Shown here in pieces: positions 878-61,386 of a DNA stretch of 64,000 bases. The notes beneath the pieces are model-generated. The model saw only the letters and a list, made by a program, of their open reading frames with translations. It was not told the DNA's origin and did no database searches. A program made the position numbers and the translations under genes. Origin of the DNA: a virus (Duplodnaviria; Heunggongvirae; Uroviricota; Caudoviricetes); IMG/VR virus record IMGVR_UViG_3300031133_000383, positions 314,635 to 378,634 of that record; one strand, 5' to 3'. Each line of letters begins with the position of its first letter. Positions within the stretch are counted from its first letter, which is position 1.

Positions 878-1402
878 TTACAAATTATTTTTTCTTAATT
901 TATTTCTGATTTCATTCGCAATGTTTTCTTGATGGGCTGGTGGATTTTTTATACTTTCTTCAATAATCTTTTTAACATCTTTGAAAGCTTCGCCAACATC
1001 AAGTTCTCCTAATTTTTTTAAAAATTCTTGTCCATGTTTTTCATTGTACAATGACTGCATTGGCTTATCTAAATCAGGATTACTTACCAGATCTTTATTG
1101 GTTCTATGATTGAGGTATGAAATCAATCCTGCTCCTATTCCTATGCTGGCTGGTAAAATGGAGCCTATCAATCCACCATTCCCCATTCCTCCCATGTAAG
1201 ATGCACCTATCAACATGCCTACTGGTAGTGTTGCCACCAATGTTAATCCAGCCGATGAATATAAATAATCTGCAAGTTCATCTCGACGATCAATTTTTTC
1301 ACTAACAAACTCATAATCACTTAGGGTTTCGGAAAAATCGTCAACTAACCCTTGTACTTTATAGGATAAATCATCAGCTATTTTTTTATCGAATAATTTC
1401 AT
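878..1402 (-). CDS. Membrane protein with two Gly-rich hydrophobic segments and a basic C-terminus
   Basis: AGLTLVATLPVGMLIGASYMGG and GGLIGSILPASIGIGAGLISYL; ends IRNKLRKNNL. Confidence 0.75.
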   Translation of the reverse strand: MKLFDKKIADDLSYKVQGLVDDFSETLSDYEFVSEKIDRRDELADYLYSSAGLTLVATLPVGMLIGASYMGGMGNGGLIGSILPASIGIGAGLISYLNHRTNKDLVSNPDLDKPMQSLYNEKHGQEFLKKLGELDVGEAFKDVKKIIEESIKNPPAHQENIANEIRNKLRKNNL

Positions 1403-1573
1403 TTTTGTATTTAATATTGTTTATAATTATTTTATCATATTTATTTTTAATTGAAACACTTATATTATTTTCAATATTGTCATGTTAACACCTATAGATA
1501 GCAATTTTTGTGGTTGCATAAAATAGGCAATATTGTTATAATCAGAATACAGAAACCATAAGGAAGCGTTGTA

Positions 1574-20165: not shown

Positions 20166-20304
20166 GATCTTTCTTACTTTTTTAATGCGAGCCAATAAGC
20201 ATTGTTAATTCAGACCTTTAAATTCATGCCTGACAGTTTAGTATCTTTATATAAAAGGTAATAAAGAAATCTTACTTTTTGCTACTTTTTCTTTGAAATA
20301 AAGC

Positions 20305-20333
20305 TTGATAAACGATAGATACTATCGTATAAT
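20305..20333 (+). promoter_or_regulatory. Sigma70-like promoter with a palindrome in the spacer
   Basis: TTGATA-17nt-TATAAT; inverted repeat acgatag-ata-ctatcgt. Confidence 0.65.
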
Positions 20334-20501
20334 AGATTCTCGAAAGGGCGATGTATACACTACTGTTGGTAGTCTTGAGTTATTAATGGAACGTGTCTTG
20401 CGATGACAACTTAGGTTGTTCTTAATTTTTTGTTAGACATTGAGGCTAGTTGATTGACTCTCTCTTTGTGGCAGATGGTTAAGTAGATACAAAGCTCGTA
20501 T

Positions 20502-20578
20502 GGGACTTTAGCTCAGTTGGTTAGAGCGTCCGACTCATAATCGGCAGGTCGTAGGTTCAAGTCCTACAAGTCCCACCA
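20502..20578 (+). tRNA. tRNA(CAU), probably Ile2 (lysidine type); elongator Met not excluded
   Basis: Full cloverleaf, anticodon arm ccga-CT CAT AA-tcgg, encoded CCA; lacks initiator features. Confidence 0.93.
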
Positions 20579-20649
20579 GTTTTTTAATGTAAAGCAGTAC
20601 TTCAATATAGAAACAGCTATGGTGCTAACTAACTATTGAGGATATTAAC

Positions 20650-20952
20650 ATGAAAGAACAGTATATTTTAAAAGAAGTTGAATCCGTTACTCAGATTGCA
20701 AAGAATATTTTTGGTGATATTGTTGAAAAAGTCTATTATGCAGAAATAGCTTATGCTTTTATTGCAGAATCAGAAACTATTGAAAGGATTGATAATCAGA
20801 TTGAGAGTGCATCCAACCAAGAAAATTCAATCGACCAAGATTGCAAAACTGTTGTTATTGAGTTTGTAAATGGTCGTAAAGTTATCTTTTCTAACTCTGA
20901 GTGGGGTTGTATGGAGTCATTAAGCAACGAAGACGTGAAAAAGATTATTTGA
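20650..20952 (+). CDS. Hypothetical protein
   Basis: SD gagga; terminator at 20960-20987. Confidence 0.75.
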   Translation: MKEQYILKEVESVTQIAKNIFGDIVEKVYYAEIAYAFIAESETIERIDNQIESASNQENSIDQDCKTVVIEFVNGRKVIFSNSEWGCMESLSNEDVKKII

Positions 20953-21033
20953 TGGATTAAGAAGACTTCTACGGAAGTCTTTTTTTTGATCACTATTATT
21001 TAGAGAATATTTTTAAATTTAATCAAAAAAATC

Positions 21034-21062
21034 TTGAAAATGTAGAGGTATTTTGATATTAT
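21034..21062 (+). promoter_or_regulatory. Sigma70-like promoter for the ncRNA operon
   Basis: TTGAAA-17nt-TATTAT. Confidence 0.65.
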
Positions 21063-21065
21063 AGC

Positions 21066-21222
21066 GTTGTTGGGAATCCGAGAAATCTTGAGTGAGCAGA
21101 TCGAAGTATGGAGTTGTGATCCATATCCTAAACTAGGCTCAGGCGTTGACGCAGGCAGGTGACATGACGATACGATGTCCCGGTAGACACACTACGCCGG
21201 AAATCTGTAACCAATCAATAGC
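21066..21222 (+). ncRNA. Candidate structured ncRNA (about 155 nt)
   Basis: GC-rich, no ORF; closing helix gttgttgg/ccaatcaat; internal helices tgagc/gctca, tatgga/tccata, gcagg/tctgt, gacat/atgtc, ccgg-tag/cta-ccgg. Confidence 0.6.
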
Positions 21223-21267
21223 GGTATCACTAGTGCTTCATATCGTGTATTGATATATATTGAATTT

Positions 21268-21561
21268 TGGGAGGTGGGCTTAGAAGCAGCCATCCTTTAA
21301 AGAGTAGGGCAAAAGCCATCGGTGTTTGGGATATCAACAGTAATCATGTTTTGTTTCTGTTTTAAGAAATAAGCATGACAAGTGAGACAGGGTAGATAAT
21401 GAATGAATCCACTTTTAATTAGTTCATTTTCTATCAAAAAGACTCAGCTAAAGATGCCCAACGGTAGCCTAGAAAGCTTACTGTTTGCCGTGGTAGTGGT
21501 CTTGGTAAAGTGAATAATAGAGTTTGTCATATTATTCCCCTTTTGGCGTAATAGCACACCA
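21268..21561 (+). ncRNA. ncRNA mimicking the 23S rRNA L11-binding domain (H43-H44) with a ~240-nt insert
   Basis: 5' half TGGGAGGTGGGCTTAGAAGCAGCCATCCTTTAAAGAGT aligns to E. coli 23S 1053-1090; 3' half GCGTAATAGCACACCA aligns to 1091-1106; no other rRNA sequence around it. Confidence 0.85.
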
Positions 21562-21614
21562 TTATTTTGTATTTTAAAATCGTTATTGTACATTTGTTTA
21601 TCTTTTTACTAAAA

Positions 21615-21683
21615 CTGCCACCAAGGCTGACGCTGGGCTTCTAAAACCTAAGCGGAAGGGTTCGAATCCCTTGTGGTGGACCA
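21615..21683 (+). tRNA. Short (69-nt) tRNA with CUA anticodon and reduced D arm; amber suppressor-like
   Basis: Acceptor ctgccac/gtggtgg plus A-CCA; T arm aaggg-TTCGAAT-ccctt; anticodon arm tgggc-TT CTA AA-accta. Confidence 0.7.
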
Positions 21684-21694
21684 ATTTTAAACAC

Positions 21695-21713
21695 GCTCAT
21701 TCTGAGCTTTTTT
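21695..21713 (+). terminator. Probable intrinsic terminator of the ncRNA operon
   Basis: gctca-ttc-tgagc plus T tract. Confidence 0.55.
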
Positions 21714-21730
21714 ATTTATCGGAGAATCTG

Positions 21731-22375
21731 ATGAGTTTTTTAATTTATTCTCAAATTGAATCCCGTCTAGAACAGGTTTTCGCTTAATTGAATTCTAAAT
21801 TTGGCGTTGTTGTGATTAAACATTATATTAAGCCTCGTTCTGAACAAGCTGGGAAAATATATGAAGTCATTTCAAATTTGGGTACATTTGAAATTGTGCT
21901 CTATACCAATTATAGTAATGTAACCTTTAAGGAATTGATTGTTTGTGAAAATGGTCAATTAGTCAATTACTCATCGTCATCCATTCTTGATAGTGTTGTC
22001 AATCAAATCAATCAAAAACTTGATATCTTGAAAGCCGTTAGAGTCATTCCATTTGAAGAGTCTATCAGTCATTTCATGGATAATGTCAAAGTTCAAATCA
22101 AGATGAGACTAAACAAGCATCTTCATATTCGAAACCAATTTAGTGTTAGTGTCACTATTCGCAAAGAAGACTGCATTTTACTTGTGGGTAATGTAACTGA
22201 TACCATCTTGGTTGATCGGGGTTTAATTTTCTCTTTTAAGGAAGACGAATTATACATGGCTGATTCATGGCAGTACCTGAAAGAGTTCATTCATACCACT
22301 TACAACATACCCCTGAATCAAAAAGATGTGGATTATGCTGATTTAGGCTCTGTTATTGATATGGTTCATCTTTGA
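21731..22375 (+). pseudogene. EM-motif-family gene with a premature in-frame TAA at 21785-21787
   Basis: SD ggag plus ATG 21731 (MSFLIYSQIESRLEQVFA*) in frame with ORF 21788-22375, which ends LGSVIDMVHL. Confidence 0.65.
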
Positions 22376-22434
22376 TACATTCATCTTAAACGGCTTCATT
22401 TTTCTCTATATTTATGCTATAATAACTGCAACCT

Positions 22435-22776
22435 ATGGAGACAATCACTATGTCATTTCTAAAAATCAGTGTTCAAGAAGGTTTTACTCAGCATAAAACT
22501 GAATATGATCTGTTTATTGTCGGCACCGATGGTAAAGGCAATGAAGTTGGTTATGGTGACTGGCGTTTTAGTGGAATGCTTAAAAAAGTAGCTTGCGTAA
22601 TTGATCCTCTTCATAAAAATATTCTGGCTGAATGTGTTAGCTATGATGACAATTTGGTTAAAGCCATGGCTGAACATGCAGTTGCTGCCCAGTCCTTGTA
22701 TTATTGGTCGTCAGCCGATCCCTTGATCAATTGGAATCTGCTTTCTGATTCCTTTGTCGTAGAGGAAATCTATTAA
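22435..22776 (+). CDS. Hypothetical protein
   Basis: SD ggag suggests start at ATG 22450. Confidence 0.7.
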   Translation: METITMSFLKISVQEGFTQHKTEYDLFIVGTDGKGNEVGYGDWRFSGMLKKVACVIDPLHKNILAECVSYDDNLVKAMAEHAVAAQSLYYWSSADPLINWNLLSDSFVVEEIY

Positions 22777-60589: not shown

Positions 60590-60599
60590 AATTTATATT

Positions 60600-60753
60600 T
60601 TAACTGTTGAAAAGAGATGCTGTGCTAATACCAGTGTGGCAGTAGAGGTGGTGACCTATTACTTTATTGCATGATGTTAGCAGGGTTATGAAAGTCACTA
60701 TAATAGTTAAGGGTTGGTAGTAATGCATTTTCAATCTCTCTATGCATTATGAC
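60600..60753 (+). ncRNA. Double-pseudoknot structured RNA, copy 1
   Basis: P1 ttaactgtt/aatagttaa; P2 tgctaata/tgttagca; P3 gcagtagag/ctttattgc; PK ggtgac/gtcact; PK agaga/tctct in the loop of taatgcat/atgcatta. Confidence 0.75.
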
Positions 60754-60770
60754 TTTTATTGTTGGTAAGG

Positions 60771-60944
60771 TTTCAATTGTCGAAAAGAGATGCAGTGGTA
60801 ACACCCAAGCGGTGATAGAATTGGTGACCTATTATTTTATCACACGATGTTGCCATTAGTCAGGAAAGTCACTATAACAATTGAGACAGCAGTAGATGTG
60901 TTGTGTGCTTTAAATCTCTTTGTACACTGCATGCTGGACTACTG
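60771..60944 (+). ncRNA. Double-pseudoknot structured RNA, copy 2
   Basis: P1 tttcaattgt/acaattgaga; P2 tggtaaca/tgttgcca; P3 gtgatagaa/ttttatcac; same two pseudoknots; stems covary with copy 1. Confidence 0.75.
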
Positions 60945-60977: not shown

Positions 60978-61064
60978 TTTTGTTTAGGCTTGTAGCTCAG
61001 ATGGTAGAGCGGAGGGCAGAAACCCTCGCGTCGGAGATTCGATTTCTTCCTCGCCTAGACAAAA
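60978..61064 (+). ncRNA. tRNA-like RNA / pseudo-tRNA
   Basis: Canonical D and T arms; anticodon arm gaggg-CAGAAA-ccctc (6-nt loop); acceptor stem has a 2x2 mismatch, extends to ttttgtttaggc/gcctagacaaaa, no CCA. Confidence 0.7.
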
Positions 61065-61312: not shown

Positions 61313-61386
61313 TTCTCGTTAGTTTAACGGTAGAACAGCGGCCTCTAAAACCGTGTATGCGGGTTCGAATCCCGCACGAGGAACCA
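61313..61386 (+). tRNA. Amber suppressor tRNA (CUA)
   Basis: Acceptor ttctcgt/acgagga, D arm gttt/gaac, anticodon arm gcggc-CT CTA AA-accgt, T arm gcggg-TTCGAAT-cccgc, A-CCA. Confidence 0.88.

Follow-up and report, generated by a model that had tools for sequence, protein, structure and literature searches.

A noncoding transcription unit of about 650 nt in a tailed phage appears to specify two RNAs that imitate parts of the translation machinery. The unit lies in a stretch of 64,000 nt (the window), bases 314635-378634 of the 437-kb virus record IMGVR_UViG_3300031133_000383, whose own completeness estimate is 98%. Judged by their sequence, the ends of its middle RNA would rebuild helices H43 and H44 of 23S rRNA, the uL11-binding GTPase-associated centre (GAC), and its last RNA is a tRNA look-alike that has a CUA loop and no D arm. 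We hold with moderate confidence that this is a phage small-RNA unit of the tRNA-operon type, giving two separable mimics that would work off the ribosome. A first-pass annotation of the same DNA had described an RNA-only operon of an unknown structured RNA, an rRNA mimic and an aberrant tRNA, the last two forming a joint decoy for RelA; much of the operon stands, and the decoy fares badly. The elements of the unit are the following.

21034-21062, plus strand: sigma-70-type promoter, TTGAAA-17-TATTAT with TG ahead of the -10 box, 10 of 12 positions matching.
21069-21261, plus strand: unit 1, the 5' segment of about 190 nt, transcribed (contigs from RNA libraries) and G+C-rich.
21262-21567, plus strand: unit 2, the GAC-mimic RNA of 306 nt, recognized by its H43/H44 likeness, its closing helix and covariation in its family.
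21568-21614, plus strand: A+T-rich spacer from the mimic to the tRNA-like RNA, without a plus-strand promoter-like site.
21615-21683, plus strand: unit 3, the D-armless tRNA-like RNA of 69 nt, recognized by homologues and compensatory changes.
21695-21717, plus strand: intrinsic terminator, GCTCA ttc TGAGC (stem 21695-21707) followed by T6.

The single promoter and the terminator that had been said to bracket the unit were both found at these places, the terminator scan giving 2 sites where 0.7 were expected. The claim that some 650 nt hold no open reading frame (ORF) was borne out as well: none of at least 50 aa lies within 20953-21787 on either strand, the longest being 49 and 46 aa (minus strand) and 36 aa (plus strand). 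When the window was compared with Rfam 15, no family reached its gathering score within the RNA unit, and the GOLLD and ROOL models, which are among the Rfam 15 families, had no match there; scans of 20900-21800 (901 nt), 21060-21265 and 21595-21700 at E<=10 returned chance-level matches only.

The case for unit 2 starts from its two ends. Positions 21268-21303 (36 nt) are 92% identical to Escherichia coli 23S rRNA, and GCGTAATAGC at 21546-21555 is the rRNA stretch that directly follows this first box in the E. coli molecule. The two halves, which are contiguous in true 23S rRNA, sit 236 nt apart in the window. Both hairpins of the GAC, H43 and H44, are found in unit 2 together with their loops and the junction pairs, and the unit does not lie inside a 23S gene, its neighbours being the promoter, unit 1 and the tRNA-like RNA. 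The rRNA mimic of the first-pass annotation is therefore right as to the H43/H44 likeness but not as a short unit, since it spans 306 nt with its halves split. Its parts are these.

21262-21270 with 21559-21567, plus strand: closing helix, in which 7 of 9 pairs form and two are U.U.
21272-21301, plus strand: H43-like hairpin and UUUAAAGA junction strand, matching rRNA.
21306-21541, plus strand: inserted domain (236 nt), which follows the U1090 equivalent and precedes that of G1091.
21306-21309 with 21538-21541, plus strand: base helix of the insert, 4 of 4 pairs forming in the window.
21545-21558, plus strand: H44-like hairpin GGCGUAAUAGCACA, matching rRNA.

We take 21282 to be the equivalent of A1067, 21275 that of U1060, 21303 that of A1088 and 21550 that of A1095; the presumed A1101 equivalent (21556) pairs with that of U1090 (21305). 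The rRNA numbering takes as its anchors A1067 and A1095, together with positions 1043-1123 and 1095-1098 as given in PMC8661411. Both boxes of the mimic family, GGCUUAGAAGCAGCCAUCNUUUAAAGAGU on the 5' side and UUUGGCGUAAYAGCACAC on the 3' side, are exact in the window. Compared by blast with the E. coli rrn operon, the whole unit matched only in H43/H44 and gave no copy of the sarcin-ricin loop. A 36-aa ORF with an ATG start and, by eye, a hydrophobic end lies inside the insert (21403-21513); it is probably a chance frame, as the inserts of other family members differ.

Members of the mimic's family were found at well over a hundred loci. The exact 27-nt 5' box was found at 74 loci of IMG/VR, 73 in the split form and one (L065) in true rRNA, and both boxes also occur in gaps without annotation in the genomes of Aeromonas phage 4_4572, Pseudomonas phage pf16 and Xanthomonas phage XacN1. 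With these three GenBank members and the window, the 73 viral loci make 77 elements, of which 67 have the 3' box within 700 nt, 48 of them unique. The 3' box alone led to at least 119 further IMG/VR loci. Cellular DNA holds at least 120 loci with the 5' box followed by GT, and among the matches listed 0 of 120 are split: AAAGAGT passes directly into GCGTAA in all of them (112 by pattern, eight as variant H44 loops). The split form was thus found only in viral records, the cellular side being that of these matches. The length of the insert varies within the family between about 50 and 365 nt. In many members a GGCACCCCG...GGUAAGGCUGA module stands just 5' of the 3' strand of the inserted helix, in the place of which the window mimic has a plain hairpin. 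The H44 loop GCGUAAYAGC is kept across the family, and blast of five members against the E. coli rrn operon showed no further rRNA piece in their inserts. The family is absent from Rfam, and no description of it or of the tRNA-like RNA turned up in literature searches that covered sources other than subscription journals and supplements.

Base pairs of the mimic persist through changes of both letters. Among the 48 unique elements, the nine pairs of the closing helix (1047-1055 with 1104-1112) form in 40-48 and take all four Watson-Crick types, 1058-1080 is paired throughout (GC 21, UA 13, AU 10, CG 4), and the first four pairs at the base of the insert form in 48, 48, 42 and 38. We aligned with MAFFT the 23 shortest members, picked by length from 47 unique ones (a slightly shorter cut). 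In this alignment 95.5% of the cells pair, against 73.1 +/- 1.3% in shuffles, and the covariation score is 0.599, against 0.154 in shuffles (0 of 500 reach it) and 0.09-0.15 with the partners slid; 14 of the 24 pairs changed on both sides, a count equalled in 54 of 500 shuffles. Because this first set had been picked by an exact 5' box, the counts were repeated on a second set of 70 unique elements anchored on the 3' box and drawn from the at least 119 loci. Among the matches listed, 1057-1081 reads AU in 63 elements and CG in 6, the pair 1058-1080 forms in 70 of 70 and occurs in all four Watson-Crick types, 1082-1086 is UA in 35, CG in 20 and AU in 12, the base of the insert is paired in 70, 69, 64 and 49 of 70, and both the U1090-A1101 pair and U1060 are kept in every element. 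Loop letters, again among the matches listed, are kept in 61 of 72 (A1067), 56 of 72 (G1068) and 61 of 72 (A1070).

The family keeps company with tRNA genes. Of the 50 non-redundant loci, 36 have at least one same-strand tRNA gene in their flanks; the distance to the closing helix is often 4-20 nt, and these neighbours carry many different anticodons; in the second set a tRNA occurs within 480 nt in 50 of 119 loci, among the matches listed. Two members differ in their surroundings. The XacN1 mimic (L003 830-1728) starts about 20 nt after an annotated 2'-5' RNA ligase gene and has its own terminator on the 3' side. A scan of metagenome contigs with a lineage-specific 23-mer found one locus, L081, a family member without unit 1 or unit 3; its mimic (1183-1490, reverse strand) reads GGCTTAGAGGCAGCC, has G at the A1070 equivalent and lies between protein genes with no adjacent tRNA.

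Unit 3 had been called an aberrant CUA tRNA. An element with CUA in its loop is indeed present, but it is not a tRNA by the default settings of ARAGORN or by Rfam. It is composed as follows.

21615-21621 with 21673-21679, plus strand: acceptor helix, including U2.G71 and G3.U70.
21622-21630, plus strand: linker CAAGGCUGA, 9 nt between the acceptor helix and the long arm.
21631-21654, plus strand: long arm, its loop with CUA at 21641-21643.
21656-21672, plus strand: T arm.
21680, plus strand: A73.
21681-21683, plus strand: encoded CCA.

ARAGORN calls unit 3 only with relaxed or mitochondrial settings, and such a call is not evidence by itself, because the same settings gave 75 and 55 extra calls on about 100 kb of control loci. 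The best score within the tRNA clan of Rfam (CL00001) is 13.2 bits, for tRNA-Sec, against a gathering score of 47, and the Rfam tRNA model (RF00005) had no match in the 901 nt at its gathering score or at E<=10. A weak Rfam match to the mascRNA family covers the T arm only. A standard tRNA was rejected on these results and on the missing D arm.

Unit 3 is, however, conserved in relatives. Blast against the 119 loci listed gave two strong matches (82.5% over 80 nt, E 1e-18), and a gapped motif scan of all IMG/VR yielded four loci, each in a different contig (152-193 kb); no match was found for an exact 19-mer taken from unit 3. The five sequences (four of them distinct) align without gaps, and all 16 named pairs form in every one. 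Three pairs, one in each helix, changed on both sides, which 8 of 500 shuffles match and none of the slid controls does. The change in the acceptor, from A-U to G-C at 6-67, settles the register of that helix, as the alternative register would be broken by it. RNAalifold independently returned the same acceptor and T arms with a seven-pair arm, one bulge and a nine-base CUA loop, 5 of its 19 pairs being compensatory. Acceptor pairs form 7 of 7 in all five sequences, two of them as G.U, and the five-pair T stem, with one compensatory change, closes a T loop of GTTCRANYC type. The anticodon-side stem has four pairs, or seven with a bulge; its loop, YUCUAAA with U33 and A37, is closed by a conserved C.A, so that a 9-nt loop is possible. 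Invariant in all five are U2.G71, G3.U70, the linker AAGGCUGA, the loop UCUAAAA with its CUA, and the encoded CCA, and A73 is kept in four. A G3.U70 pair together with A73 is the main mark that alanyl-tRNA synthetase (AlaRS) reads, also on minihelices and on transfer-messenger RNA (tmRNA). Charging with alanine is hence a fair prediction, and unit 3 RNA is probably a substrate of AlaRS through G3.U70.

The pairing of the mimic with the tRNA-like RNA in this lineage is supported by the related loci. Three of the four relatives (L321, L322 and L330) read, in order, promoter, about 22 nt, mimic, about 25 nt, tRNA-like RNA, and a hairpin with a T run, and with the window counted the two RNAs are linked in 4 of 5 loci. 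The promoter of L330 is TTGCCA-17-TATAAT, matching at 11 of 12 positions, and GTTG after the -10 box is common to the window and its relatives. In the fourth relative, L329, the promoter TTGTCA-17-TATAAT leads directly to the tRNA-like RNA and its hairpin, with no mimic. The hairpins in the place of the terminator have, by eye, loops of about 15 nt and were not called by the scan, whose limit is 8 nt. The two RNAs are separable, each occurring without the other. Synteny of all three units, proposed with the first-pass annotation as a check, is found for the mimic and tRNA-like pair in 3 of 4 relatives but for unit 1 in none.

Environmental RNA libraries add a line of evidence beyond the genomic pattern. 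According to a run index, part of the stretch occurs in nine RNA runs, and four metatranscriptome runs from four studies were compared on 20300-22500. Exact contigs cover 21078-21509 in X10, 21080-21555 in X9, 21080-21235 and 21206-21569 in X8, and 21159-21299 and 21270-21533 in X11. The junction of units 1 and 2 is bridged in 4 of 4 runs by a contig that reaches more than 31 letters into either unit. In three runs contigs begin at 21078-21080, just 3' of the -10 box, a weak hint that fits a start of transcription there, and the X10 contigs on the upstream gene stop at 20955. The huge depth at 21262-21335 is due to true rRNA contigs of other organisms. Loose ends at 21269-21305 run into other members of the mimic family and diverge just outside the 5' box, so other members are also present in metatranscriptomes. 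No contig of the four runs lies on 21570-22500 (unit 3 and the terminator), which says nothing about unit 3; small RNAs are often lost from such libraries. As no contig bridges units 2 and 3, their co-transcription rests on the positions of promoter and terminator. The single RNA-only operon of the first-pass annotation is in this way backed by contigs across units 1 and 2 but not across units 2 and 3.

Unit 1 is best seen as a transcribed segment peculiar to this phage. Where three structured units had been reported, units 2 and 3 are upheld by comparison with relatives but unit 1 is not: its minimum free energy (MFE) z-score is +1.66, 194 of 200 shuffles folding at least as well, and its only signal is a G+C content of 0.49-0.55, in a window of 0.316. 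It had no Rfam match at E<=10, no homologue in GenBank phages, in its own genome, in the 76 family loci or in the 119 further loci listed, and no match in two exact scans of IMG/VR with 21- and 22-mers. All four relatives lack it, about 22 nt joining the promoter to the next RNA in its place. A decayed tandem copy of the promoter and mimic start was considered and rejected, the alignment score of 19 being reached by 79 of 300 shuffles; asking if unit 1 is a duplicate also brought up a 12-nt direct repeat, 197 nt apart. An HDV-like (hepatitis delta virus-like) theta ribozyme gave no match in unit 1 in the Rfam scans, to which the search for it was confined.

On both sides the unit is set off from protein genes, as follows.

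20650-20952, plus strand: ORF of the upstream gene, left neighbour of the RNA unit.
20962-20987, plus strand: hairpin with a T run at the end of the upstream gene, AAGACTTC tacg GAAGTCTT then T8.
21788-22375 and after: downstream ORFs, for which the search gave no relatives.

The hairpin at 20962-20987 was read directly from the sequence, the terminator scan giving no call there, and marks the left border of the RNA unit. The two flanking proteins had no relatives in IMG/VR. Across the whole record ARAGORN finds 26 tRNA genes, and several further features of this kind were seen elsewhere. A normal-looking CUA tRNA lies at 61313-61386 (59.2 bits, Rfam); with unit 3, the phage, whose code appears to be the standard one, carries two CUA-bearing RNAs. 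Rfam recognizes a tRNA at 60986-61057 (40.4 bits) that ARAGORN missed, with an anticodon-side loop reading CAGAAAC, and ARAGORN calls a tRNA with the four-base anticodon agaa at G000:C1:389162-389237, outside the window. Between tRNA genes at 60598-60885 lie two repeat copies (81 nt at 77% and 27 nt at 81%, spaced 173-174 nt) that look like a pair of related small RNAs and had no Rfam match at gathering score.

How such a unit might work can be outlined from these features. One host-type promoter would drive about 650 nt that end at the intrinsic terminator, and the primary transcript would be cut like a tRNA precursor, by RNase P at the 5' end of the tRNA-like RNA and by trimming to the closing helix. 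RNase P cuts tRNA-like structures, and AlaRS charges minihelices that carry G3.U70; the tRNA-like RNA would accordingly be handled by tRNA enzymes and probably charged by AlaRS. The mimic would act off the ribosome by binding a usual ligand of the rRNA domain, a role as free RNA that is suggested because the needs of the rRNA fold are kept while closing helix, insert and A1101 evolve separately. Free uL11 would be its most likely ligand (the isolated 58-nt rRNA fragment 1051-1108 binds uL11 tightly alone), or else a factor or toxin aimed at H43/H44. The two RNAs would lie in one transcription unit as separable modules and would not form a single obligate device.

Several observations weigh against this account of the unit. 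The change U1101A and the large insert within H44 mean that uL11 binding by the mimic is not assured. With A1067, G1068 and A1070 variable, the factor-binding loops may not be what the ligand reads, and such variation speaks against a ligand that would read the H43 loop letter by letter. The second set of elements was partly constrained, the 5' box being taken only at five substitutions or fewer, and 35 of the 119 loci listed have no such box within 470 nt. Thermodynamic z-scores of units 1-3 are unremarkable (MFE z of -1.53 for unit 2 and -0.54 for unit 3), and because they are weak the support for units 2 and 3 comes from their relatives. The alignment of the tRNA-like RNA comprises only four distinct sequences, and its 1-72 (C-G) and 2-71 (U.G) pairs are unlike those known for tRNA-Ala. 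The scan of 1.6 kb gave 5 promoter-like sites, and shuffles gave 5.3 +/- 2.2; as this is no better than chance, the promoter counts only with its downstream context. The tRNA-like RNA may start separately in relatives: L330 has at 647-675 the site TTGGCG-17-TATGAT, the -35 box of which falls in the mimic's H44 box and the end of which is 18 nt away from the tRNA-like RNA; a -10 box matching it is absent from the window. Finally, assembled contigs show neither ends, strand nor single molecules.

Among the other explanations, the one that survives best, though we think it improbable, is a pair of counter-defence decoys, the mimic absorbing a host or competitor effector that attacks H43/H44, for instance an ADP-ribosyltransferase or nuclease, and the tRNA-like RNA an attacker of tRNAs or their CCA ends, so that ribosomes and tRNAs are spared while the infection runs. 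The kept H44 loop and the restriction of the split form to phages (73 of 74 viral against 0 of 120 cellular among the matches listed) suit such decoys, as does the XacN1 copy directly 3' of a 2'-5' RNA ligase gene, and phage tRNAs reportedly neutralize a tRNA-cutting defence in work on PARIS. We know of no defence system aimed at the GAC. A free RNA would also have to outcompete thousands of ribosomes, and some family members differ at positions 1067, 1068 and 1070 of the loop. A toxin for exactly this site does exist, Tre23, which according to PMC8661411 ADP-ribosylates bases 1095-1098 of H44 in 23S rRNA and lowers the GTPase activity of EF-G, but it is an interbacterial toxin, not a phage defence.

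We think it less probable still that only the mimic matters, the tRNA-like RNA being a decayed tRNA that serves as an RNase P signal for the mimic's 3' end and unit 1 a junk leader. Such processing signals are known, as in the mascRNA of MALAT1, and it fits that unit 3 fails the tRNA models and lies just ahead of the terminator, and that the RNA contigs end at 21509-21569, near the closing helix. Yet L329 has no mimic whose end would have to be made, and still retains the promoter, the tRNA-like RNA and its hairpin. RNase P can do without the long arm and its loop, but both are conserved and show compensatory changes, and G3.U70, A73 and CCA are kept. About as doubtful, or slightly more so, is a joint scheme in which the operon belongs to a phage RNA toolkit and rewires termination or surveillance at the A site, the mimic draining uL11 or another reader of H43/H44, to the detriment of RF1 or RelA, and the alanine-accepting, D-armless CUA RNA exploiting the gap or trapping the same factor; if true, it would be control of host translation by imitation, with RNA only and without a phage-encoded protein partner.

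An amber read-through module, in which the mimic titrates uL11 and so weakens RF1 at UAG while an alanine-charged CUA RNA reads that codon, seems to us quite unlikely. Loss of uL11 weakens RF1. Bouakaz et al. (2006) and Sato et al. (2006) reportedly deal with uL11 and class I release factors. All five sequences have the CUA loop as well as G3.U70 and CCA, 4 of the 5 loci link the RNA to the mimic, and the phage has the further, normal CUA tRNA at 61313-61386. Against amber read-through, the standard code reads well over the genome (ORF cover 0.50-0.92), with a gain from TAG as sense no larger than that from TGA as sense, and recoding of TAG in this phage was dismissed on this comparison of ORF cover. 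Only 1 of 50 loci has a CUA tRNA close to the mimic and only 1 of 93 tRNAs is of this kind, the loop of unit 3 has 9 nt or is closed by C.A, and decoding by a D-armless RNA on bacterial ribosomes is doubtful.

The joint RelA decoy of the first-pass annotation, in which the mimic and an uncharged, defective tRNA imitate the RelA-activating site and trap or mistime RelA, which would give control over the stringent response, is the least probable of all. The activation of RelA needs uL11, RelA holds the CCA end of the deacylated A-site tRNA, and that tRNA touches the uL11 stalk by its elbow in RelA-ribosome structures. Although these needs, the shared promoter and the linkage in 4 of 5 loci speak for it, the missing D arm leaves the tRNA-like RNA without a normal elbow to touch the stalk, its G3.U70, A73 and CCA suggest a charged rather than an uncharged RNA, the two RNAs are separable (L329) and mimics of the wider family adjoin ordinary tRNAs, the 437-kb record holds no RelA_SpoT, Ribosomal_L11 or Ribosomal_L12 domain, and the unit imitates neither the 30S A site nor H38 nor the sarcin-ricin loop, all of which RelA also requires, blast having matched only H43/H44.

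Overall, the account we prefer, of two separable mimics from one phage small-RNA unit, points to phage-made likenesses of translation-machinery parts that would act off the ribosome. A virus would encode a copy of an rRNA site, nearly letter-perfect where the fold requires it, and a tRNA look-alike as free RNA genes under one promoter. Cis-acting leader copies of rRNA sites and tRNA look-alikes in several settings were known before; the conserved D-armless partner, its linkage in this lineage, the placement of the insert relative to the 120 cellular rRNA matches listed, and the RNA-library contigs, which put units 1 and 2 in environmental RNA libraries, are new, and the family is in neither Rfam nor the literature searched. 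Should the mimic bind uL11, a translation GTPase, RelA, a release factor or an H43/H44 toxin, it would be a new, RNA-only way of tuning or shielding host translation. The D-armless G3.U70 CUA RNA offers a compact natural test of what bacterial tRNA enzymes and ribosomes tolerate.

Comparison with known systems makes these points more concrete. The closest is the GAC of 23S rRNA itself (H43, H44 and the tip of H42; E. coli 1051-1108, the site of uL11 and thiostrepton), which shares with the mimic H43, the UUUAAAGAGU junction strand, H44 GCGUAAUAGC, the pairs 1057-1081, 1058-1080, 1059-1079, 1082-1086, 1087-1102, 1091-1100 and 1092-1099, and U1060 and A1088. Unlike it, the mimic is free-standing, a 9-bp closing helix of free sequence replaces H42, an insert of about 50 to 365 nt separates 1090 from 1091, and position 1101 is A where the commonest contexts of the 120 cellular matches listed have U (AGCTCAC). 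Within its own family, the window mimic differs from the wider membership by its own promoter, its 190-nt 5' segment and a D-armless partner in place of ordinary tRNAs.

Unit 3 has two parallels. The tRNA-like domain of tmRNA and the alanine minihelices carry G3.U70, are charged by AlaRS and have no D stem. Unit 3 resembles them in its G3.U70 acceptor, its GGUUCGAnUCC T arm, its CCA and the missing D stem, and departs from tmRNA in lacking an mRNA-like part or tag frame, in its long arm with a CUA loop and in the pairs 1-72 C-G and 2-71 U.G; ARAGORN found no tmRNA in the region or in the whole phage genome, and Rfam gave no tmRNA match. With the animal mitochondrial tRNA-Ser(AGY), unit 3 shares a short linker in place of the D arm, an extended anticodon-side stem and a normal T arm, whereas its occurrence in a bacterial phage, its 9-nt or C.A-closed loop, its encoded CCA and its score of 13.2 bits set it apart from D-armless mitochondrial tRNAs.

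For the unit as a whole, the T4 tRNA cluster offers a precedent, as it yields two stable small RNAs, RNAC and RNAD, whose functions are yet unknown according to PMC9697503. Compared by description, these and the window RNAs are phage noncoding RNAs from tRNA-type units, presumably cut by tRNA enzymes; unlike the T4 RNAs in that account, those of the window are recognizable imitations of an rRNA domain and of a tRNA. Leaders of ribosomal-protein mRNAs, for example those of L10 and L1, act in cis and imitate rRNA binding sites. The mimic resembles them as an off-ribosome RNA that copies the rRNA site of a ribosomal protein, and differs in being a free-standing gene, with no ribosomal-protein gene nearby and in a phage without a uL11 gene; it is also much closer to rRNA than such leaders are known to be.

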